Shown one piece after another: positions 2,991 through 23,037 of a stretch of DNA of 45,322 bases; position 1 is the first letter of the stretch, and each line of letters opens with the position of its first letter. A program made the position numbers and the translations under genes. Below the pieces are notes generated by a model that was not told where the DNA came from, did no database searches, and saw nothing but the letters and a program-made list of their open reading frames with translations. This DNA is from Dimargaris cristalligena. Lineage: Eukaryota. The stretch spans positions 1 through 45,322 of the forward strand of contig ML002304.1 in assembly GCA_003614675.1 (NCBI GenBank), in the 5' to 3' direction.

Positions 2991-3392
2991 ATGTGTTATA
3001 ACACCGTTTTCCGTTACGGTTGTGGGTATCAGGATGCGATGTTATATAAGTGCACAAGAGCAAAGATTAGTGGACATGTATATAGAACGCCTGTAATCAA
3101 TTATTTAGAATTTGTGGCTACCGAATGTGGTCCGTGTGCGTTGCTGAGTCCGGATTTATCGTCATCGGATGTATCTACGGATAACGATAAAGAAGAACTG
3201 GAGATTAATTTCGCGGAAGAGCCGGCTAATCGCGCGGAAGAAGGACTTATTACCCCTCCGATGTCAGACGACGAAGAACTGGTGAATAATATCGCGGAAG
3301 AGCCGGCGAATCGTGCGGAAGAAAATCTTTCCACCCGTCCGACGTCAGACGATGGAGAAGAAGTGCCTCCGGTACCGGACGAAAAGCACTGA
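2991..3392 (+). CDS. Small Cys-rich protein (MC-x7-Y-x-CG[H/Y]...C...CxxC) with an acidic repeated tail; possibly a pseudogene
   Basis: ATG at 2991 in ORF 2823-3392: MCYNTVFRYGCGYQDAMLYKC...ECGPC, then two 27-aa acidic repeats. Possible 5'UTR intron gtaagt 2904 ... cacag 2982. Confidence 0.55.
   Translation: MCYNTVFRYGCGYQDAMLYKCTRAKISGHVYRTPVINYLEFVATECGPCALLSPDLSSSDVSTDNDKEELEINFAEEPANRAEEGLITPPMSDDEELVNNIAEEPANRAEENLSTRPTSDDGEEVPPVPDEKH
3192..3353 (+). repeat. In-frame 81-bp tandem repeat x2
   Basis: EELEINFAEEPANRAEEGLITPPMSDD and EELVNNIAEEPANRAEENLSTRPTSDD; units start at 3192 and 3273. Confidence 0.95.
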
Positions 3393-4082
3393 AGGGGTCG
3401 AATCGATCCAACCGGTTTCCGGCGTAGCAATGCTCTAGTTGGGTTTCTATCCACATCTTTCCCTGACATTGGTATGAGCGCAATGTGGACTAAGGCATAA
3501 CCCACTAGCCCCTGGGGTTTTTTATAACGGCTCGAGGTGCTGCAACTACCCGTCCCACCCCCTTTTTTCCATCGTCCTTTATTTATATAACTATTAATAA
3601 ATTTCTGTCTTAAAATCATTGATATTCAGCGGATCTACTGTTCCCCCAGAAGGGAACGTTTCTTTATTTATATAATTGTATAGGATATTGTATTGACGAT
3701 TCTATTCGTCCTAAAGGAATAAAAGTTTTTTTATGTAATAATAACTCACGTGAATAGTATAGCAGCCTTATAATTGGCCTGCAGTGACCGGGAAAGATTT
3801 ACAGTGATCTACGGTGATCTACGTCGCTCTTATTGGCGGGTAGTAGATGTCCCATATTGGACAATTTCTTTATCGTGTTACGTGTATAACGATAAGAGAC
3901 AATTTATAGGTAATAATAATTATGAGTAATTAGAAAGGAAACCTCCCGGAATCATTAGATGGGGCGGAGGTGTTGGTATATAGTAAAACGGTATCCCCAG
4001 GATGTTGCCTTTAGGGATATTGGCTTACTCATCATAATGCTGTTAAGGAATGATCCGCACTTTATAATAAATAAACATATTA

Positions 4083-4473
4083 TCCATAACATTGTTTGGA
4101 AGTCGGGGGACTGCCAGCTGCAAGTATATACAGTCCAGGAGGAACCTAGGTCAATAACTTGGTGGTATCGGCCCCAGTACAGGGAATAGTTATAAAATGG
4201 CAGATGTAGGATCTAAAAACAATATGGTTGCTGTGTTTATGAATAGAAGCCCGAATAGTAAACCTAGTAATACTTGGGGATGGTGGTCTCATTGTGCGAG
4301 TTGCATTTTATTTTAGTGATTAAGATAATGGCAAGCTGTAAAGCATGTTTACATTAGTTAGTGTACATCACTTTGTCAAATAACTGTCATTCTATTGTGG
4401 GTGCACTAATGAATAGGGTAGCGGGGTGCCCAGATACTTAATTCGAGGGCCACAGTATGTATAAAGAGAGAAA
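4083..4473. repeat. About 390-bp interspersed repeat, copy 1
   Basis: Colinear direct match to 11183-11569, sharing acagtccaggaggaacctaggtcaataac and ttcgagggccacagta. Confidence 0.9.
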
Positions 4474-4492
4474 TAGAAAAATGTCTGTCCTA

Positions 4493-7400
4493 TTATGCAG
4501 TTAGGCCCATTTGTCTTATCCGCCGTTGGTGACATGACAAATGAACTACAGTGGGCTCCGGTTTTCTACCGCCACTCTGTACGCCATTTTCGTCCAAAAA
4601 GGATAGCGTATTAGTGCTTACGCCAACCCCACTATTCGCCTGGAGTCCCTCCCCACTTCTGTCTTCTCCGCTGGATGAAGGGTCGGACCATTCGGCATCA
4701 GCGGCTGCCTCTTGCACAAACACGGTATTACCGATGCGTTTATAACAGAGTGGGCAAATTCGGTCGGGAGAAATAGCCACCCGCTGCTGCCGAATACGGG
4801 CCCATTGGGCCTGGACTTGGACTCGTTCGGCCACCATGAGGTTGCGCACAATGCGTTGGGTCTGGCGGTCGTGACTGAATGTACGCAGGGACTGCTCGAA
4901 AAAGGGATACAGCTTGTGAACAGGCAAGGCCGCGGGGATTAGGGTCAGGGCGGCTAGAGTATCCATATGGCGACCGTATTGCGACATGTGGCGAATGGCC
5001 TGGGTGAGGAACAGTCGGGCCATGGAAGGTGACGAGACCCTTGGTGATCCTTGGGTCTGTTCGTCCGCATTCGGACGTATAACTAGGTGGGGTTCGTCAG
5101 TGGCGGTGATGCTTGTGTTAGCATAATTGCTATTCGATGGCTGAAGATAGATGCGTAAGAGGATCAGGTAAATATCCGGCACTTCGCTCTGCTCATTACA
5201 ATAGGTCTCCGCTTGGGCAAAGTCGTGGAGTTGATACACTATAATTTCCAGGGCCTGCTCGTGTCGACCCATTCGGGAGAGGACTAGCGCCCGTTCTTGG
5301 TCGAGCCCCTGCACGGGTAGTCGGCCCAAAAGACGCTCGGGATTATAGTATTGGGACTTTCGGAGGAAAGCCCGCAGGCGCCATCGAATAGATAAGGTCG
5401 GGTCATCGGTGGTTGTGCTGTCCATGCCCTCGGGTTCATTCACCAACGGGGTGGCAAGGGAGGGCAGTTGTAGCACCCGGTCTAGGTAGAGGCAGGCTAA
5501 GTTGTGGTCGACGACGGGGTAAAGAGCTTGGACTGCCTGGTCCAATACGGGGATCGCTGGGCCACTCGGGGTGGCTGGAGGTGAGCGGGATAGGCGCCAT
5601 AAGGGCGGGAAATTACCTGATGTCGCACCGGTCGTCGCGGCTAGTTTGCGTTCGGGGGGCATCTGGGATCGGTGGGCATAGCTAGATGAAGTAGCATCGG
5701 CCTCCCCCGGCCCTAATGGTTGCGCCGACGAAGTTTGCGTTTGTGCATCTAGGTGGTCCTTCAGTTCCTGCTCGTAAGCCTCGAGGGCAAATGTGCGGAT
5801 GAATTCTAGATACTTGATGGCCCACTCGTCACCGAACTTCTGGAGATATTGGGCTATCCGTTCAACGGGTGATTTCAAATAGGCCATGGCGGGGCGGTTC
5901 TCATCGGCAAATATAAAGATACCCTCATCTGGGTCGCTCGTCATTATCCAGGTCGCATATTCCAGGATCAGGTCGACATGCTGGAGGGACAGCTTCTCCA
6001 GGTACTGGATGGTGGCGAAGGGTCCGGCTAGAGCACTGGGTACGTCAGTGAGGGTATCCGGATCGGTGGCAGTTTGGTGCAATAAATGCAGCGCTTTGCG
6101 ATGGAGGCCCTTCCCGAAATATAGGTCGACCAATTCCTGGTACATGTGGTGGTTTAGTAAGAGGCGCTCACTAATTTCAATTTCGCAGGCATTGTGGTGC
6201 ACCCGTACCAGAGGGCCAACTAGTCGGGGGTTGGTCATGAGGTAGGCCTTGAGCAACGTAGTATCGATCAATTGGGCCAATGGAGGGATAGGGACGGGAA
6301 TTGCAGCCAGTCGAAAGGGTATGTACTGAGTCAAGTAGTTCTCTAAAGGCGATGGCGTGGACTGGGGGGTAGGGTATATCGACCGGGTGTGAAATTCCAG
6401 TGTAGGTTGCTTGCGACTAACCGCTTGGGCGATCAACCGGCGCTGTTCCGTCAAATACCCCACTAAGAGAGATACTCGATCGCCGAGCTTCTGCTCAGCT
6501 AGTGCTGCCGACAGGCCGGATGACTGCGATTGACGAGACGCGGGTCGATTGACATTGTTGTGGGCCAATGCCGACGGGGAGTCTGTGGAATCTCTCCCAT
6601 CAGCCACAGTAGTAGTAGGTGGCGGAGTGGCGAGGGGTTCCACAATATCATCCTTACTATTCTCTTCGACACCTCCTTCATTTTCCCCGTCCCCATTTCT
6701 CACCTCCGACACCTCTCGATTGGAAGCTGGGGATGCAGGGCGATCCAGGCGCTCTCCAGCCAGAAATTCGTCAAGTCCCTGGGCGAATACCTGCACCACT
6801 TCACTAGGTATGATTTCCAAGTCCTGGAATAGGGTGAGAGAATCCTCGTAGTCGTGAGTCCAACATAAGTAGTGGGCGTAGAGAAACCGAATGCACTGGC
6901 TATATTCCGCTTTGGTGTCCACCAGGATGGAATCACTTTGGTCAATAAAGCTGAGGGCTTCGACGAATTCGTGTCGTTGAAGCAGCTGCGCGATCTGGAT
7001 TTGGTGGGGGAGCGGCATGAGTCGCCAGACGGTATGGGGGCCAGCCAGGTACAAATATTTGCCGCTTGAAATGCGCTGGGCGGCTAGAGGAAGAGCAAGC
7101 TGTTGGACCAGAGCCGACGTGTCTAGGTTGCGAATTTCTACCTGGCGGCCGCTGACGGCTACTACATATGGGTAGGCGTACCCGATAGCCTGGGGCCCTG
7201 TAGTCCACAGAAGGTCCGATTTGCGGGTAGGCCGGTCCCCTTTAACTGCGATACACAGGGTATGTTGGTCCCGGTTCACCAGAATCTCGTCATTGGGTAG
7301 TTTGGCAATAAGGGTATCCGAGCCCGGAGGGGCCGGACCCTGGGGGTCGTCCAGGGAGCCCGCGCCGGCTGAGGCAACGGCGGTAGATGCCGCCGACCCA

Positions 7401-8953: not shown

Positions 8954-9419
8954 ATATGTAACATGATTAAATATTGAAGGAAAAAATTAGACACAGATCA
9001 CTGTGTTGGGCTATAGATACTCAGCAATATGCCAGTGATAAAAAGCAAAGATAGTATGCAGATTTATCAAGGAAATTTACAGTAGAGTATGTGGAAATAT
9101 AGGAAGGTAATAGCAATAGGGATGCAAATTGACCAAAGAAGTAGGAACATGCTAGCCAAACACCCTTCATTTAGTCAGTTTAGGTCATGTTGTGTCAGCT
9201 GGAAATGCATGACAAGTACAAGGCTTGACCTCACTGGCCATTGAAGCCTTGAGATAGCCCTAGTAGGACAACTGAGCAGTCCCTTATTCAGAATGTTTAG
9301 TTGCATTAGTGGGCTTCAGAAGTTGTAGTCATTGTCACTGGTGGACAAGGGACATCAATTGTTGGAAGCCCAGGTTTCTAAATAACCAGGTCCCTAGTTG
9401 CTATGGCCCCTCTGCATAT

Positions 9420-9555
9420 GGGTGAAGTTTGGCCCAGCTGTATAAGGTTTTAAATGATAACTGTATGGGATAATATATGGGAGATTTATTTTTAACCAGT
9501 CATATTTGCTTCATCTAACGGATTTTTCATTATACAACTCAGTTGAACCTCTCCC
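9420..9555 (-). mobile_element. 136-bp MITE copy 3
   Basis: Exactly 136 bp, GGG...CCC termini, ATAT on both flanks. Confidence 0.9.
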
Positions 9556-9559
9556 ATAT

Positions 9560-9840
9560 GATCCCTTGGCCATCTTAGCCCCATCATGAGACCATTTGGT
9601 AACATTCAGTATAGTATCACCCTTATCCAGTCTGGGATACCCTTCATGCTGGCTGGGGTGATATATAGTGCCAAAGGGTATAAAAGTGGCCACCTCCCCA
9701 CCTCCTATGGCCTTCAAATGATATCCTGATATATACCTTTTACTCACAGAATGCCATTTATTAAAAAAAATTAAAAGAAACTAAGAATGGGTAAACAGGG
9801 ACTAGCCTATTGCCAATCTGAGGTCACCAATAGTGAAGCC
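9560..9840. repeat. Interspersed repeat segment Y
   Basis: Direct match to 17185-17462, for example ggtataaaagtggccacctccccacctcctatggcctt. Confidence 0.9.
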
Positions 9841-9966
9841 TGTCACCCGGGTTATCCACTCTTAGTCCATCAAGAGTCCCGGGGGTAGGCTTCTAATGGT
9901 AGGTGGGGCTTTAGGCTTGGCTAAGTAGGCTACTAGTGTTAGGGAGGGCATAATACTAACTAAATA
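9841..9966 (+). mobile_element. LTR-like fragment starting TGTCAC, nested at the end of segment Y
   Basis: Reverse-complement match to 16168-16295. It begins with TG exactly where the 9.6 kb/17.2 kb alignment stops. Confidence 0.55.
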
Positions 9967-10429
9967 ATGCAAGTGTGGTCAACTAGGTGAGGAATGTTGT
10001 CACAGTGTGGTGGTATCAGGCCACTAAAATGAACAACAAAAATATATCAAAAGGGCAGGGTGGCTTCTCCAGGCAAACTGGTTTGTCACTCAAATGAAAA
10101 TATTAATAAAACCAACTGTGTAAAGTTTTAAACTAAAGTAATCCAATATGAAAAATACTTATTTGGGAGCTCAAAAGGTCAGTCCTTAGCAACCATAACT
10201 TGAAGAATAAAATCCAAATAACCAGAGTAGTAATAAAGATAGGTTTTATTATAAAAGGAAAGATACCCAAAAATTAATACTAAAATTTAAACCAAAGAAA
10301 TTGACACTAAAACTTGACACACAGAAAAAAAGAGGGGGAAAAGTTTCCCTTATATGCAAAAATATACACACTAATGCACAACTGATCATTTGCATGCATA
10401 GCCTGATCAAGTACATCGATGGTGCATAT

Positions 10430-10565
10430 GGATGAAATTCAAACCAGCTGTATAAGGTTTTACATAATACATGTATGGGTGAATATGTGGGAGAATAGCC
10501 CTTAACCAGTAATATTGGCCTCATCCAATGTATTTTTCATTATACAGCCTGAATGAACTTCTCCC
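10430..10565 (-). mobile_element. 136-bp MITE copy 4, closest to copy 1
   Basis: Exactly 136 bp with ATAT flanks; near-identical reverse complement of 2700-2835. Confidence 0.9.
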
Positions 10566-10569
10566 ATAT

Positions 10570-10898
10570 GAACTACATTTTTATTATTGTTCATTATTAA
10601 ACAAGGACCAATTCATTGTGTTTGAAGGCCGGGGATTTAAACAGGTATCACCCACTACAGAAAAGAAGGTGAGTATTGTTTATGAGATGGAAGGGCTATG
10701 ACATCCTTGATCACTCAAGGTCAATTGGCAAGCAAGATTATCCCATCCCCTATGAAATTAGTGGAACATGCAGCTCATTTGGTTTTAGAAGCTGAGATAA
10801 CTGAAAGGGACATAGGGCAGAAGCACCAGTAAATTCCATGTAGTTCCCAATAGTGGCTAATTTAGTATTGTCTATCTGCATCTGTTAATGCCATTATA
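10570..10898. repeat. Interspersed repeat segment X (inverted)
   Basis: Reverse-complement match to about 16853-17180, for example ggaagggctatgacatccttgatcactcaagg. Confidence 0.9.
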
Positions 10899-11182
10899 CA
10901 CAGTTTTATGCCTCAGTTACATAGTGGAAGTCACCTATTCAATATTCCTGTAAGTCCCAGAGTCGGGATTTTACCTTTTGCTAAAGAACGGTTGTCTACT
11001 CATTAGGCAAGTATTATCTTCCCCGATTGTTCCAATAATCCTTTATATCAGCACACTACCACTGGTTCATATGGTGGGTGGTAGTAGTGCTGTCTTCCTG
11101 CCATACCTTCACTGACTTGTATGAATAATTCTAAAATCGGAATTCCCAATTGGCCTATTATCATGATAGATTAACATTAACA

Positions 11183-11569
11183 CCCATATCATTGTTTGGA
11201 AGTCGGGGGCCTGGCCACTGTAAGCATACACAGTCCAGGAGGAACCTAGGTCAATAACCTGGTGGTATCGGCCCCAGTACAAGGAATAGTCATGAAATGG
11301 CAGATGTAGGATATAGAATCAGCATCACTGCTATGCTGATAATTAGAACCCCAAATATAAAATCCATGAGTATTAAGGGAAGGTGATCTCATAATGTGAA
11401 TTGCATATTAATGAACCAAATAATGGCAGGATGTAAAGTATGTTCATTTTATTTAGTGTACATTGTCTTTGACAAAGAACTTCCAGTCTAGTATTGGTGC
11501 ACTGGTGAATAGGGTAGTAGAGTACCCAGTTACATAATTCGAGGGCCACAGTATATATAAAGAGAGAAA
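11183..11569. repeat. About 390-bp interspersed repeat, copy 2
   Basis: Direct match to 4083-4473. Confidence 0.9.
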
Positions 11570-12311
11570 GAGAAGAATCATGGAATACTAGGGATACAAA
11601 GAAATAAAGCTGAATGTAAGTAGCTAGAGTACAGTAGGTACCCCCAAGTGATTAGTTTTATTAAACTGTAATTTTAATGGGGTAAAACATAAGTGGCTAA
11701 CATAAATGGTCTTATGATAGCAGGATAAATTAGCATAATTAGGTGATATAGGACAGGATAAAAGCCACATAGGAAGATATTCTTCAACAACATTATCCCC
11801 TTGAACCCATTTTGGCTAATCCAGACTACCAATATAAATAAGCTACCACCCACATTGTATTTGAGATTTTGGCCATTTCCCACTCTCATTGGGACTACCC
11901 CTTCCACTCCTTCAAATTGAACTTGCCCCCAAGTCAACTCTTTAACTCCAAAACCCTTACACATTAACATTTTCCCATTGGGAAGTCTGCTGCCTATGTT
12001 AACTGGCTGTGTCTCCCTTGACTATAGTCACTACCACTATTATTACAAAAACCCACAGGTAAACACATGTCTGCCTTAGCCACCAGTACTCCAATCAGGC
12101 AAGCAGCACCAGGCAGGCTAAGTCAACCTCTTAAATTGGCACAAATGAGATAGTGTACGTTTTTAGCCGTGTTTGCCTTGTAATACCCCTCCAAATTCAC
12201 TGTGGGCAACCACCAGGGACTAGCGGGAAAGTATCAGCAGTATTGTTAAGCACAATGCCGTGTTGGAGTGGGATGTCCTACGTTTCAATGAGTGGGAGGC
12301 CATTCTCTGGC

Positions 12312-12875
12312 AAATTAAACCTCATCAAAACCCGGATTCCCTTTGCGCAGTTCGCTAAGGCCAATAACCAATTCGACACCGTCAAAGAGGCGCGCAAAAT
12401 TGTTCAATGGAATTATAAACAACTCCCGCGGCAGCAGCAACCCCACCTGGAGCTGAAGGCAAGAGTGGCCCACGATATCCAGGAGGCCGAGAGGCCCAAT
12501 AACTCCATAGAGGGCATCATTCGGCGATCCAATCAGCAGTTTGAAAATGACCAAGTTCGAGACATCAGACGCCATGTGCGACGATCAGCGCAGCCGATTG
12601 GGCGAGATTAAGCACCGCGAGGAAGGCCACAAGCGCCAAATGGCCGAAATCGAGCAGGAGATTGAGCTGTTCCAACACGACTTTGGGGTGGGCCCTCCCG
12701 AGGATCCTACGGCCGACCTCACACACCAAATGAATGGGCTCGGACGGCAACTGCGGGGTATGCAGAGCCGAGTCGATGAGCTACAGGGCCAGTAGCAGGA
12801 TACCATGGCCTAATCGCGCAATGCCTGGCAACACATGGAGCCTAAGCAAACCGAACTGCAGCAGCTGGAAGACTT
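12312..12875 (+). pseudogene. SMC5: SMC5 coiled-coil arm fragment, frameshifted, with premature stops
   Basis: LNLIKTRIPFAQFAKANNQFDTVKEARKIVQWNYKQLPRQQQP aligns without gaps to the recalled SMC5 segment [43 protein letters not shown]. Frameshift near 12540, TAG at 12793 and a TAA shortly after. GC-rich, gene-like codons inside AT-rich repeats. Confidence 0.7.
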
Positions 12876-13002
12876 CGCACCAGCTGTATAAGACTTCAAA
12901 TGATTTGTGTATGGGAAAATGGGCGGATGCATGATTGTTAACTAAGAATATTTGCCATACCTGATTTATTTTTTCGGTATACAGCCTCATTGAACTTCTC
13001 CC
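12867..13002 (-). mobile_element. 136-bp MITE copy 5, diverged, left end merges into the SMC5 fragment
   Basis: cagctgtataag ... tatacagcctcattgaacttctccc. ATAT flanks are lost. Confidence 0.75.
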
Positions 13003-16000
13003 ACTTTATTGTGCTTCCTCTTCCTACCCCACTGCTTACACTATCATTTGGCTACTTGCATCATTCACATGTGTGGTTATTTTTTTACACTAACGGACAA
13101 GTTATTAATATCTCCTCAACCTAACATCTGAATAAAGGCAAGGTCTGCATTCCCGGTAGTTCGTCAGAGTGTATCCAGTTAGTGTCTGTTGAGATATCGA
13201 GTGGAAAGAGCAAGTTTTATATAAAGGAACATAAAATATGAAGTAGTAGGAGCGTTACGGACGCCAGTAAACTGGGAATCCAGGAAGTGCGGCCGATACA
13301 CCGTTTATATGGCTGGACCATCCTCAGAAAAGCATGTGGTAATGTCCGCATATATTGTTGCCGGGCCTACTGGGATGCGTATATACCATTCTGGTTGTCC
13401 ACTGGTACTTCCGATGTAACGGCCTCAGAAGCATCGGGGGTATCCAGGCATGCTGGATTTATGCACCAGCCAGAGTCGGCCCCTGCTCTGGCTGTGAATG
13501 CAATATGTCCATATGGTGTTGTAGTAATTTCGATATGTGTAGGCTATATATTGAAGAAGTTCTCTAATCACATCGGATCCAACAAGATGAAAATGCACAA
13601 CCAATCTTTTGATAGAAGCATAAAACACTTAGTAAATGAGTGGTAGCATACATATACCACTATGGCAATTTCTACGCATATGAAAAATGGGTTTATTAAT
13701 AATGAGCTTCATTAATGTGTATTAAAAGATCGAATGACATGATATAAATCAAAATAATATTTCCACCAAGGAATTGTAAATAGTAAAATACCGCCGCAAC
13801 CTCTTTGTTTGTATACCAGCCGCAGGTCAACCATCTCTGGAACAAAAGATGGTGTTCAATGGGAGTTGATTACTTTCATTATATAATCTGTGCCACATTC
13901 CAAGGAGCATTTTATAATTGGTACAGGGCTGAGTTCCAGTATAAATAGACTGGCATCACTCGGGGGTAGTTGTATCTCATCCAAAATACCAAAATACCAC
14001 AAATCTATCAGTATAATAACCGGCCAAAATTCTTTGCCAGTTACTATAATGATACCTCAGGATAACTTAACCCCGGTTTGTAGTGTTTGGGCCTGGCGGC
14101 CTAGGGTTGATAGGCGCCTTGGGTTGGCGGGTATCATAGTCCCGACACAGTATTGTTTCGGGAGTAAAAGCACTATCCTGAGAAGGACAGTCTAGAAGTT
14201 CTTTCATAAGCATTTCTGCCGAGACTTGGTCGCCCAATTGGTTATGGTGACCAGCGGAAGTGTTGTTGGCAGTAGCCAAGCCATGTTGGGTTGTTGGGGG
14301 AACATTGCTAATTAACATCATTGTTTTTCACGATAGTGGTCAGGTTTTGGCAGAAACGATAGAAATTATAATTGAATGGCTTGAAGGAAAGCAGGCTTGC
14401 TTTTTATATTCAAAAACCCTGACATCATGATTTCTTGGTTAAACACTGCCGATATCCATCCACGGTATGCTAACAATAGGATATTCTGGTATAATTGTGA
14501 CCAGTGGTGGAATACTCCCATCCCCCCTCCTTACCACCAGTCGTGTCTTCTAACAAAAGAATCAATGAAATATGGTATAAAAAAGCAACTGTGAATTGTC
14601 TCTTTGTTGACTTGTGGATTGACTGACCTTCATTATATGGTTTACATCTACGTTTCAATACACAATAGATAGAATGTTCCAATAGTTCCTCATTGGTGCT
14701 ATACAGGGTGGATTCGATTTATTCAGAAACTTCAAAGTGGTTTGCAATGGGGAACAGCAGTCTGATAATACTTTTATGACAGCTTCAGCATAGACACCCT
14801 ACTATTCCCGTAATTTATTTTGAATTGGTCATAGTGTAGGACCACAGTCAGCAATTGTAGTGGAGAATTATGAACTGGGCCATTGTGGTAGTTATCAATT
14901 TACGCTGGTGAAAATTGTGTAGTCGGTGGTTGAACAATATTATTGGGGTCAATATGTCCAGACTGTTGATTTACGAAGAGTTATTAATGGATATGGTTCT
15001 AATTAGTCTATTATATGAACTTATGGAAGAATTGCTTGGTACAATTACACTAGACTACTAGCGCCTCTCTCTTACATTCATAATATTCACATTACAACCA
15101 GCTGAAATAACTTCTGTAATAGTATTTTATGCCATGAAGTAGCCACCACGTCATACGAAATCCAGAAAACAACTGACAGGGAACATAGGGTGGGGTTTGG
15201 GAAATTCTAGATTTGGTAATGGCTGCCATATTAACTTGGTAAACCCATAGTACATTGGGGTTGATTATATAGCGCATCATAAAGATGCAGCTAATACATC
15301 CAGTGACACATAAACCACTTATGATGAAATTAATGTATATGTGCATTATGAATAGTTAGATTGTTAATCTCTTTACTTGGAGAACATCTGGACACCCACA
15401 TAAAATAACCATGTAAACTGCTATTGGGATTAGTGAGCAATAGTGAGTACTTATGGTTGTGACTAGTTGTGAATCCCCTTGATAGCCATAGAACTGGGAA
15501 GCTATAGTGAATAGTTGAGATTGGAAAAAAAAGGGGGAAACACAGGAATATGACTAGGCTTACTGCATCAATATTGATTTAACACATACTTATTAACAAA
15601 ATGTTATTGTAATGAAAGGCATAATAAAGGAATAAATATTATAGATTGATTATAGTAGAAATAAGTCTGAGTTACAACCCTCCTTCAACAGTATCAATAT
15701 TGTAAAGGCTACTGTCGGCCCTCCTGATCTAACTTTGTCTAGGCTTAACAATTGTCTGCCCTTATTAGGCCTTATAGCATTATATTAACCCTTCCATGGT
15801 TACCCCCAGTACTATGGGATTAGCATTTATCATATAACCATTCTCTTTCTGGACCCCAGCACTTCACACTAAACACTCAACCAGCTGATCCAAATACTAT
15901 TACAGTTCCCATAAGAGTCTTCCAAATACAAGGCCCATCTAGTTAGTCTATTTATCTATACCATAGTTTAGTAGTATCTTCCCTTGGGATCTCCCTCTGA

Positions 16001-16167
16001 GGTGGTCCCTACATATATATAACGAGGCCCCCTTGGGACTGGTTTGATTCCTCAGCTTATTTGTATCCCCTAGTTTATCCCAATAAACTCTATATAAACT
16101 TATACCTTTGTAATGACCAGTAAGTATGCCTGCTGCATGTCCCTTACATAAACTGATCACCTAAGCC

Positions 16168-16295
16168 TTTATTAGTTAGTACTATGCCCTATACCTAATG
16201 CTAGTAGCCCACTTAGCCAAGTCTAAGCCCCACCTAATGTTAGAAGCCTATCCTCGGGACTCTTGATGGACTAAGAGTAGTTAACCTAAGTGATA
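16168..16295 (-). mobile_element. LTR-like fragment, second copy
   Basis: Reverse complement of 9841-9966. Confidence 0.55.
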
Positions 16296-16852
16296 GTCAG
16301 ATAAGCATACTATTAATAATATAGTTTTTTTTGGAACTGGGTAGTATTTAGATTAGACATATAGAATTATATAGCCCTTAGATTATTAAGTTTCTTATCC
16401 CCTAAGAAATATTAATAACAAGGTTGGTGTTATGACAGGCTAGAAATAAGACCAGGTACCACAAGATGGTCAGGACTTCAAAGGATGGAAATAGGTTTAT
16501 TAGACTAGATACCAGATAGGCAAAACAAAAGAGAAGTTGTAAGCTAAAGAGCAAGCTGTGGGGGAATGGTTGTGGTTATATCCAAACTCCAGGGGCAGGG
16601 GAAGAATGATGATGACTAATAAATGTAAACCAGTAACTAGATAATAAGGGGAATAAAACATAGTAGGATAATGGGTATATATTTCTATAATGTTAAATAT
16701 TAATTTTACCCATTTATTGGTATGGGTTTTTTACTTATATGGCTGGTTATTCTTGTAGTTTGAATTAACCATTAATAACAACTCCTGACCCTGGGATCTT
16801 CAGGAATATTGCAATGGTGGTATCCACAATGCAGTCAAGTTGTAAAACTTTT

Positions 16853-17462
16853 TATAATGGTATGGGTAGTTGCAGATAGACAATATCAAATTAGCTGCAA
16901 CTAGGAACTATATAGAATTTATTAGTGCCTCTGCCTTATATCCCTTTCAGATGCCTTGGCTTCCAAAACTGAAGGAACCATGTGTTCCATTAATTTCATA
17001 GGGGGTGGGATAATCTCACTTGCCAACTGGCCTTGAGTGATCAAGGATGTCATAGCCCTTCCAACCCATAAGCAATGCTCACCTTCTATTCTGCAGTGGG
17101 TGATTCCCATTTAAATTCACAATCTTCAAACACAATGAAAAGCCTTTGTTTAATAATGAATAATAAAAAATGTGTGGTTCATATAACCACTTGGCCATCT
17201 TGACCCCACCATGAGACCATTGGGTGGTATTCAGTATTGAACCACCATTATCCAGCTTGGGATACCCTTTGTGCTAGCTGGGGTGTATATACTACTAAAA
17301 GGTATAAAAGTGGCCACCTCCCCACCTCCTATGGCCTTTAATTATTTTTTTACAGGCATTATCAACCAGAATAATGAATGCCATCAAACTAAATACTGGG
17401 AGCAAGGATCAGCTAAACAGGGACTATCCTGTTGCTGATCTGAGAGCTCCCATCATGAAGCC
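16853..17462. repeat. Uninterrupted X-ATAT-Y repeat containing the empty MITE target site (17181-17184)
   Basis: The left half matches the reverse complement of 10570-10898 and the right half matches 9560-9840. They are joined by a single ATAT. Confidence 0.85.
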
Positions 17463-18129
17463 TATCAAATGGCTTCTCAGGAAGGTAAGTTATGAAATTT
17501 GTGTTTATGTGTATATTGTTAGGCCAGTGTTTTGAGGCCCCTCCCTTCTGGGACTAAGGCTGGGATTGGACCCCTTGCTCTCCCCAGGATTGGCAGGGTC
17601 ACTGGACGTCAGGTTTGGAGGGCTCAAGGTACTTAGGTGAATCATGGAGAACTTGGGAAACGGTCCCTCAGCTATTCAGATTGGGTCAGAACTGTGCTCT
17701 GAGGTTGAACTAGGATACGGTGTGAAATGTTCAAAGAGAAGTGGTCCTACACTCCCATTGTCAGAGTTGGGTGCTGGAGGAGCCACAGTGATTTTGTGCT
17801 GAAAATAGGGTAATAAAAAAAAAAGAAACAAAAATTTGACTTCCGGTTGAAGTCCTTGACTGATGCTGGGTAAAATACTGAGTGAAGTTAAAGTAGATAT
17901 TTATTCTGAATAATAAAAAATTATCTCAAAGATAACTTGCCATTTTAAGGGCCAACCGGGGAGACTATATATATGTAAAATAATACTATGAACTTAGAAT
18001 TATACTACTACTTTAGGACATCATCCTCGGATGGACAGACAACTATAAAACCACAAAGGGAGAAACTGGTTGGGTCTTCAAGCTTGAACACTGTGGAAAA
18101 ATTGGGAAGAAAAGGATATGTGGAAAAAT

Positions 18130-20220: not shown

Positions 20221-21319
20221 ATAGGTGTTCCTCTTTCAGCCATTGGGAATTCTGGGAACCCTGACTGTGGCGCCAAGGGGCTTGGGGTCTCTACGGGAGG
20301 ATACGCTGTCCGCTCACTGTAAGTGAAGTACATGGGCCTAAGCGTAAATCTAGCGGATTAATTTATATACTTTAAATATGGATAGGGCCAGGCAAGCCAG
20401 GGCCCATTTGGCATTTGCCGCTACTTCCAAAAGTTAGGGTATGGCAGACAATGTTAGTTTTACGAAGGAATGTGCATATCTGTTGACCGAATACCACCGT
20501 ATCACCAGCAATGTTTCCGCATGACCCTACGGCTTAGAGAAAAAGGCTAAAGGCTTTTCCCTTGATAGTGTAAGCTATATGAGAATATCTATTCAAATTG
20601 GGTAGAACTGCGAACATCGGGGAGAGTCGCATAAATTTAGTGGGCCACATCCTCAAACCCGACGAGGAGAGGAAAAACAAATAAGTGCTTGTAATATGAT
20701 TTTCCTTTCTTGTCTTTTCCTCCTGCCTCAAAACATTAATCTATTAATGAACGCATTCGCTAGCGAATAGTAGTGTAAAAGCACCAGCCAACTACGAGAC
20801 TTGGTGGGCTTGCCGTCCCCCTGTGGCCCTTGCTTTTCCAATACCTGGGACCCTTCAACCGGTGCACAAGGGAGCCGGGGTGGCTCAAAAGCATCCAATC
20901 ATCCGCCACTAACCGTCGGCAACCGAACTATCCCTTCACAGTGCAAGGATGGCCAATGTCGATGGCAGAAATCCCAACCTGCACTCTTGTACAACGGTCC
21001 ATTCCTACAGCGGCCGTTTCCTGTTGAGGTTTCTTGCGGTGAACCAGCCATTTTGTTAATGCAATACTTTAATCCAATTATACGGGTAACTCAGGCCCCG
21101 TCAACCTTTTCCTCCGTTTCTCCAAGGCGAACCCAAAGGCAGACTAGGCCCCAATGGTATTTACATATATACCGCCCTCCAGCCACCCTGCGTTGACTCA
21201 TTTGCCTCAACCCTCCCCCCACTAACTTGCGATTATAGCAATTGCCCACTACCAACCCACTTTTTACATCACTCGTTTTCCATTCTGTCCATCTCTTTGA
21301 AACCTACCCGTTCTTTAGG

Positions 21320-23037
21320 ATGGCCATGAAATCCGTCTGCTACTCTGTCACCATGGTGGGAATGATTTTGGCACGCTGTGCCGTGGTCTCCAGTCGCCCT
21401 AGTGCCCCTGCCCGTGAGCATGTTTCACCTGTCTCGACTGGGGATTTATCGGCGGCACTGCCCCTACCCAGCGACACGACAGTCCACGCCTTAATTGACG
21501 ACTCCATATTGCGTCAAGATGCAATCCCCAGTGAAGTGGAAAACGCGAACGACAATTTTCAACCCAAGGACAAGCCCAAGAAACAATACGAAAATTTGCC
21601 TCGGGAAATTCGCCGAAATATGATCAATAACCTTGATGTTCGAGAGTTAGGCCAACTTTCTTTGGTATCCAAGACCGACCGGGCATTTGTATACTCTAGT
21701 TCAAAATTCCAGGCATTGGCTGACGTAAGTGAAATTGTCAATAGATTCTTAAATTAACCAAAGGTTGGTCAAGGATTGTGTTTTCGGGACTCTCTCGAAA
21801 CGATCAATGGCAGTCTTGCTCGGCTTTTCACCCTATCCCTTTCATTACACTGGCCCTGCAGTATGACTTCCCCCCATTAATAACACGAATAATATCTAAA
21901 TCAGTTATGTTTTATACAATGCCTGCCTCGCTTCCCTAGCAATATGAAGCTACTCGTAGTATTATAAGCAAGCTTACGTCGGAATCCAGTGACATAAACT
22001 GGGATGACGTTATCAAAAAGGTCATACATGTTGAATTTACCAATGCTGTATTCAGGCGGGTTTACGAAGAACTTGAGATGCGTGAAATCTCACCAACGGG
22101 TAGAAGAATTTTTACGGGCGAAGATTTGGAGATCGATGAATCAACTTCACAACAGAGGTCGTTTATCCGTGAATCTTTTTTTAGGAACAGCCCGGACTTT
22201 GAACCCTGTCTTCGGAAAATTTATTCCGACTGGTTCTACGTACGCCTTGACAAAATGAATCGGAGGCAGCTTGCGACTATGTTCCCACTAGTGGAAACAG
22301 CCATCGGTAGTGACATCGGTCAACTCTGGGACATCACCAAAAATCTGTTTACTTCCAATATTCCCTTTTCAATCACCGCGACCGTGGCTCCGTATAAGGA
22401 GTTGATCTTGGCCATGCGCCAAACTAGTAACCAGTACGGGAATCAATGGAAACCAACCAACGAAGAAGTTACAATACATTCCATTTCTGTAATTATCGGA
22501 GCATTGGTTGTACAGAGAAAGTTCAATTTACTGAAAGAATACATCGCCAAAATCATAAGCAGCGAACTTTTTGACGACGATTGGATAAATTTTGTCTACC
22601 TAATTGCCTTGGAGCTGGAATTGGACGGACTTAAAGACGATGGCATATCTAATTTTAGCGTATTCGGCCTGGACGCATATAGATGTGCTAACGAGTTGGG
22701 CTTCAAGCGTGCTGCCGAAGTATTGGCGAATGAATACCGATCAGAGGATGAGGACTGGTCACCAGACAGTCCAGTTCGCTGCGAGGATCATATTGCTTTA
22801 TATCGCCAAGTCAACATTAATATCAGTCGAGATGAAGATGAGCGGATGAAGGTATCGGTTTCCTATCTCGCCCACCGTTCCACCCTGCCTAATGAGCCTG
22901 CCTTATCAGGGCTGGTCTTCGAAGACACCAACGTGAGTAGAAAACTATTCGACGAGTGGCTCCTAAACAGTCATTATTATAGAGAAGACGCTGCGGCCGA
23001 CCGAGAGAAATATTCAAACCAGGCTATATCCGATTAG
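21320..23037 (+). CDS. Predicted secreted F-box-like protein, about 500 aa; exons 21320-21724 and 21940-23037
   Basis: Hydrophobic N-terminus MAMKSVCYSVTMVGMILARCAVVSS and F-box pattern LPREIRRNMINNLDVRELGQLSLVSK. A GTAAGT...TAG phase-0 intron joins the two ORFs in frame. Confidence 0.75.

Follow-up and report, generated by a model that had tools for sequence, protein, structure and literature searches.

Two MITE copies joined by their right ends to the halves of one ATAT target: a small deletion-inversion in dead repeat DNA of Dimargaris cristalligena

Contig ML002304.1 of the fungus Dimargaris cristalligena (assembly GCA_003614675.1, 30.65 Mb in 2220 contigs) holds two copies of a miniature inverted-repeat transposable element (MITE), named M3 and M4, whose right ends are joined to the two halves of a single ATAT target. 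We analyzed the complete contig (the window; 45,322 bp, C97 among our contig handles). A segment of an older host repeat, H, is inverted together with M4, the ATAT is duplicated, and each left flank lacks its partner half. This is the product of a transposase-style deletion-inversion in dead repeat DNA, small and real. It probably arose in one reaction, in which both right ends were cut inside-out and then joined to an ATAT close by: a deletion-inversion of the Tn10 type. The features of the locus are listed below (LTR, long terminal repeat).

9063 to 9415, minus strand: Z, a piece from downstream in the decayed host repeat H, which forms the uninverted outer left flank
9416 to 9419: ATAT site c, at the M3 left end; W, the half that belongs with it, is missing
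9420 to 9555, plus strand: MITE M3, 136 bp
9556 to 9559: first duplicate of ATAT target a, at the junction of the M3 right end and X
9560 to 9840, plus strand: X, right half of the target in H, where the inverted block begins; 73% identical to 17180-17478
9841 to 9997, plus strand: repeat A, a solo-LTR-like insertion in H, 588 bp when complete, of which the first ~157 bp are present and the remainder is missing
9998 to 10425, plus strand: repeat R2, first half of an 861-bp solo-LTR-like repeat inserted in A, broken at an internal ATAT
10426 to 10429: ATAT site b, native to R2, at the M4 left end; its partner half, Q, is on no MITE end here
10430 to 10565, plus strand: MITE M4, 136 bp, where the inverted block ends
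10566 to 10569: second duplicate of ATAT target a, at the junction of the M4 right end and inverted Y
10570 to 11578, minus strand: Y, left target half within H, which forms the uninverted outer right flank; 79% identical to 16780-17184
16780 to 17521, plus strand: H paralogue, uninterrupted, with a single ATAT at 17181-17184; it serves as the empty-state reference and is not the ancestral allele

An earlier note on this DNA had quoted three junctions, and all three are present: a MITE-less ATAT at 17181-17184, M3 followed by ATAT and X, and M4 followed by ATAT and inverted Y. Alignments to the empty site stop at the ATAT. On the X side, 47 of the 60 bases to its right match (7/30 on the MITE side), and 10 of 14 bases match next to it on the Y side (5/30 on the MITE side), with the complete Y block 79% identical over 406 nt. 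The two target halves touch the same MITE end, the right one, as had been claimed, and in a blind partner search the right ends of M3 and M4 were each other's best partners (scores of 36.0 and 30.5, against at most 12.5 for partnerless ends, n = 12). This partner test drew on 102 distinct MITE copies from 177 overlapping sequences, and ends with at least two empty homologues counted as assessable (n = 25). Ten of these ends, belonging to 5 copies, had the opposite end of their own copy as partner, and 12 were partnerless; the sole partner of the M4 left end was another MITE, which occupies the same LTR site on C457. The partnerless state of C340, C681 and one C419 end is explained by neighboring or nested insertions. 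As candidate non-reciprocal cases, C340 was set aside as a simple insertion that has an LTR 5 bp from it, and C681 as a nested MITE. The MITE on C363 (L126, C363:987-1122) is a second MITE-bounded rearrangement with a true flank mismatch: its right flank is a repeat broken at ATAT, its left flank is unrelated, and its partner was not found.

The host repeat H has nine matches, of which six run uninterrupted through site a, two are the halves at the locus, and one ends at a contig end short of the site. Site a reads ATAT in all six uninterrupted copies, and none of these six carries a MITE there; nor does any other retrieved H copy. The note took the 17.18-kb site for the empty site, and that site is indeed MITE-free; it is, though, a paralogue, 73-79% identical to the halves at the locus and one of the six uninterrupted copies. 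The note's description of the other flanks as unrelated was half right, for the left flank of M3 is the same host repeat: Z matches H ~700 bp beyond X (223/333 columns to the copy on C1620, z 29; 125/196 to that on C1307, z 9; z 4 against the 17-kb paralogue). X runs opposite to Z and Y, which share one direction, and Y is colinear with other H copies as far as 11578. The left flank of M3 comes from farther downstream in H, so the inversion covers 9560-10565 only, and the order Z(-) M3 X(+) LTR LTR M4 Y(-) thus describes one H copy with its middle reversed and ~1.5 kb missing. Since the 17181 site is a paralogue and not the ancestral allele, the sequence at 10.6-16.8 kb was not shuffled, contrary to what had been suggested; the 5.8 kb between 10.97 and 16.78 kb lies outside the event. 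The nearest relative common to X and Y among the six copies compared is the 17-kb paralogue, and the X/Y rank correlation over these copies is 0.83 for transversions (p 0.04) and 0.60 for all substitutions (p 0.21), which weakly suggests a shared nearest relative for the two halves.

R2 is nested in A and A in H, and both are truncated at the locus. Twelve other R2 copies continue through ATAT site b. The two halves that belong with the left flanks, Q (the R2 continuation) and W, are absent from the locus, in an assembly that may be incomplete; a genome-wide pattern search for any MITE end joined to Q returned only the control on C457. Judged from reference copies, the missing length is ~1.5 kb (413 + about 430 + 718 bp). 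Three other relationships were considered and rejected. A match of 9841-9981 to 16154-16296 belongs to a separate LTR-like repeat that had no share in the event. A reciprocal inversion in which both left ends shared one site fails because the left flank of M3 is not the R2 continuation, and a flank swap with near-identical sister MITEs fails because the flanks of the closest sisters are unrelated to the locus. At C457:19617-19760 (L047) and at 10426 of the window, MITEs of two subfamilies occupy the same homologous R2 ATAT in the same orientation.

The repeated unit to which M3 and M4 belong is a short (136-bp), non-coding element with GG..CC ends and the terminal inverted repeats of a MITE. 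Two genome searches gave 1002 and 997 candidates, i.e., about 1000 relatives, with 40 of the candidates scored in each. In 80 full copies the termini are imperfect 26-bp inverted repeats with a common motif at positions 18-26. ATAT lies on both sides in 66/75 full copies and in 72/86 of a larger set; four copies have other matched tetramers (CTAT, ACAT twice, and ATTT). These counts support the proposal that ATAT is the duplicated 4-bp target. The CTAT pair is the sole case in which a 4-bp duplication can be told from one of the central 2 bp with TG..CA ends, and unoccupied R2 sites rule out a 2-bp AT duplication. An AWWT target is given as the hallmark of Sola1 (PMC3845634); because the dominant ATAT fits it, we regard the family as Sola1-like by target.

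M3 and M4 are 79% alike and belong to separate subfamilies; M4 is the younger copy. M3 differs from its closest sister at four positions over the full length, all of them CpG decay, and M4 differs from its closest sister, on C88, at one position; the C88 flanks are unrelated to the locus. Neither copy shows a trace of crossover, and neither is a hybrid. Compared in register, the right ends of the two (R3 and R4) agree at 19/26 positions and at 11 of the first 12, while left and right ends agree at 18-19/26. M4 (10430-10565) and its C88 sister (L002, C88:32823-32967) have CpG-decayed positions in common, which suggests that the copy moved after methylation and mutation. MITE pairs less than 250 bp apart comprise six inverted pairs (L004, L028, L100, L101, L103, L108), one direct tandem and two nested pairs; three of the inverted pairs have their right ends inside and are a possible substrate for such an event. 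Direct close pairs may have been purged.

From the product we infer the following ancestor and reaction. The ancestral order would have been Y-ATAT-X-[LTR A-[LTR R2-M4-Q]]-W-M3-Z, with M4 and M3 inserted independently and inverted, so that their right ends faced inward. A transposase would have cut the right ends of both MITEs, and the ~1.5 kb between them (the rest of R2, the rest of A, and W) would have been lost. The two right ends would then have been joined to opposite strands of the ATAT ~0.9 kb outside M4; this joining would invert X-A-R2-M4, duplicate the ATAT and leave M3 and M4 direct. We enumerated ancestors reached by simple insertions, followed by concerted two-end events, same-subfamily recombination, adjacent deletions and in-place flips. 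Exactly one of the 48 two-MITE ancestors reaches the product in one step, by the pairing M4R+M3R; eight two-step routes avoid like ends, in a two-step search that covered two-MITE ancestors only. When a third, lost, abutting MITE was allowed, 24 solutions were found among 480 ancestors per subfamily, like-end and canonical jointly. None of the enumerated solutions listed uses recombination. Some eukaryotic transposases, such as those of mariner-type elements, accept two identical ends.

We compared this product with known systems as described in the cited papers. In the Tn10/IS10 deletion-inversion, central DNA is lost, the inside ends are joined to the target, and one element is inverted into a direct repeat (PMC2723962). 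The locus shares the central loss, the inside ends on one adjacent target and the direct elements afterwards: both duplicated target halves sit on like (inside) ends, M3 and M4 are both in plus orientation with the segment between the target and one element inverted, and the DNA between the inside ends is gone, with R2 and A truncated and W absent. Unlike Tn10/IS10, the pair consists of independent, non-autonomous 136-bp fungal MITEs, 79% alike and from different subfamilies, the target is a fixed ATAT, and we know the event only through its product. The reversed-ends events of maize Ac/fAc (bioRxiv 10.1101/2021.03.08.434479) resemble the locus in that facing ends are cut, the DNA between them is lost, the flank is inverted and the target duplicated at both breakpoints; they start, however, from direct copies and pair a 5' with a 3' end, whereas both target halves at the locus carry a right end. 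The single-chromatid event of rice Ds (PMC3239180) likewise juxtaposes an inversion and a deletion and involves two inversely oriented elements, but it pairs 5' and 3' ends, and where flank meets flank, a junction with a footprint remains. The locus has no flank-to-flank junction: all four of its junctions are MITE ends, and a single-chromatid route would be possible only via a third, lost MITE. Galileo inversions also have a transposon copy at each breakpoint; unlike M3 and M4, those copies are opposite and chimeric and nothing is deleted (PMC2775673). The same bioRxiv source cites aberrant impala transposition in Fusarium. In the literature searched, which took in few subscription journals and no supplements, we found no like-end events by MITEs or other eukaryotic transposons.

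Several observations weigh against like-end pairing in a single step. The end differences are consistent: position 4 is T in 78/80 left ends and A in 80/80 right ends, position 8 is also fixed for different bases, and these differences are conserved across subfamilies, so that the enzyme may tell the ends apart. One event only is at hand, no second like-end case was found among the 25 assessable ends, and an exact-pattern search of the assembly for a 136-bp element with two right ends gave no matches. Genome searches found no autonomous partner or transposase carrying these ends. At the locus itself, Z is equally close (68%) to a copy on C78 outside this H subfamily and has an oppositely oriented relative on C2203, and site c is ATAT in this copy alone, where other H copies have GCAT or GTAT. 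The mismatched flanks at C363 imply that second-step deletions are not very rare, and together with a twice-hit homologous ATAT (2/14 LTR copies) they keep multi-step rivals alive. Among the contig pieces listed (32 of 4577 from the read runs described below), none bridges the M3/X, R2/M4 or M4/Y junction. Finally, the maize and rice Ac/Ds events pair 5' with 3' ends in the sources available.

A rival reading has the transposase use ordinary left and right pairs in more than one step, which we consider rather unlikely. Such a history could take the form of a reversed-ends deletion-inversion after which M4 was flipped, or replaced at the same palindromic ATAT; of a macro-element, M3L..M4R, that was inserted again in inverted orientation and then shortened by an adjacent deletion; or of a single-chromatid event via a third MITE, once directly beside M4 or M3 and since lost. 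The eight two-step solutions, the one-step canonical solutions that a third abutting MITE would allow, the younger age of M4, the fixed left/right differences of the ends and the 5'+3' pairing of the eukaryotic cases in the sources available all speak for it, and abutting copies do exist (one tandem pair, with the tandem joint in two runs). Each version needs an extra coincidence, though: a deletion ending at one ATAT among roughly 20, a flip in place or a second insertion at the same site, or two inverted MITEs that abut, an arrangement absent from the close MITE pairs listed. ATAT is frequent in these repeats (36 in 2690 bp of H, 16 in 861 bp of R2). Our weights for the competing routes are rough odds, set without measured rates.

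Recombination between copies, one of the explanations first offered, found no support. Transposon recombination makes inversions in Drosophila and rice (PMC2775673 and PMC3239180), and about 1000 MITE copies are available for it. Ectopic recombination between inverted MITEs would leave opposite, chimeric copies with nothing lost; because M3 and M4 have the same orientation, neither is chimeric and both partner halves are gone, it does not fit, and a version in which a later insertion and deletion altered one breakpoint is highly improbable. Equally improbable, in our estimate, is that two neighboring H copies each took a MITE at the homologous ATAT, in opposite orientations, and that both subsequently lost the half at the left end. 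In this genome one homologous ATAT has been targeted more than once, at 2/14 R2 copies, and H copies cluster on this contig, but none of the six other H copies is filled at site a. This history would need two hits and two deletions, and it leaves Z, X and Y, as one middle-reversed copy, unexplained.

An assembly or amplification artefact has the slightest chance of all. Five read runs from two samples cover the region; four were compared, all as contigs, and three may be from the source sample. The assembly is fragmented, a cross-paralogue joint from 17300 to 9677 (38 shared letters) occurs in 1/4 runs, and 9457-10691 has no bridging piece among the contig pieces listed, which is evidence neither way. 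Against this, Z/M3 is bridged without differences in 4/4 runs from two samples, the empty paralogous site is bridged by single contigs in 4/4 runs, and no joint linking Y directly to X occurs among the pieces listed. An artefact is unlikely because mis-resolved MITE paths would be expected to keep end polarity and so would not place both target halves on right ends. The ancestral allele was found in none of the four runs compared. Like-end transposition of two MITEs, which the earlier note had also proposed, is the best fit of the three explanations offered, as an inside-out deletion-inversion rather than as a composite that moved.

The MITEs resemble Sola1-type MITEs in their 4-bp AWWT target, GG-starting ends, shortness and lack of coding sequence (PMC3845634); they differ in that our searches turned up no autonomous partner bearing these ends. 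Sola1 is described as rare in fungi and is not reported from this lineage in the portion of PMC5751038 at hand. A search for longer MITE-ended elements gave lone end-like motifs on C363 and C189, with no second end and no transposase. A broken DUF7869 gene (L158, C1712:2659-3109) has introns and a DDE-like look and is the only match of its family in the assembly; neither of its termini carries a MITE end. A 22-nt match to the M4 left end inside C1712 (E 0.016) lacks ATAT and faces away from the gene, and we took it as chance. An Atlas search with the DUF7869 remnant returned solely DUF7869 or unnamed clusters. We presume a link between DUF7869 and Sola; a literature search on DUF7869 returned no papers.

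Searches aimed at the identity of H gave nothing: its open stretches have no Pfam match, its matches in 20 further stretches contain no long open reading frame, and none of 61 candidate protein relatives of one H stretch passed. H copies carry the Vps39 3' end and 3' flank (window 4067-4944, C2217:1336-2001 and C2203:1-216; 78% over 666 nt), which indicates that H captured host sequence from this locus; this capture may explain three H pieces on this contig. Repeat A has about 990 candidates in the genome, and at C1475:335-1477 (L082) two A copies form a 1.14-kb imperfect palindrome inside H. The window also carries eukaryotic genes, among them Vps39, a DEAH-type helicase and Dus. An 81-bp tandem duplicate at 3192-3353, its two copies 83% alike, lies within overlapping open reading frames for which Pfam gave nothing, and an intron-split gene adjoining the repeat block (21242-23037) has a weak F-box match and resembles a member of a secreted-protein family. 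The repeat block at 9-19 kb is CpG-depleted (observed/expected 0.06-0.15 in several 1-kb bins). The rearrangement is confined to ~1 kb of dead repeats, and the genes are untouched.

Deletion-inversion as a class is already known from bacteria and plants; what would be new is a fungus in which MITEs of two subfamilies paired through like ends. When a MITE lies at each breakpoint of an inversion, recombination is the usual interpretation; a like-end product, dated by nesting, would show that this family is not strictly bound to end polarity. Its signature can be scored in fungal genomes as direct copies, with reciprocal target halves on the same end and orphan halves on the other. As a tentative extension, which would make this locus a naturally preserved eukaryotic example of like-end transposition, an ATAT-specific, probably Sola1-like transposase of this early-diverging fungus may pair right ends from subfamilies 21% apart, such that any inverted pair among the roughly 1000 MITEs could act like Tn10, deleting or inverting adjacent DNA or carrying cargo, and this locus may be one of many.

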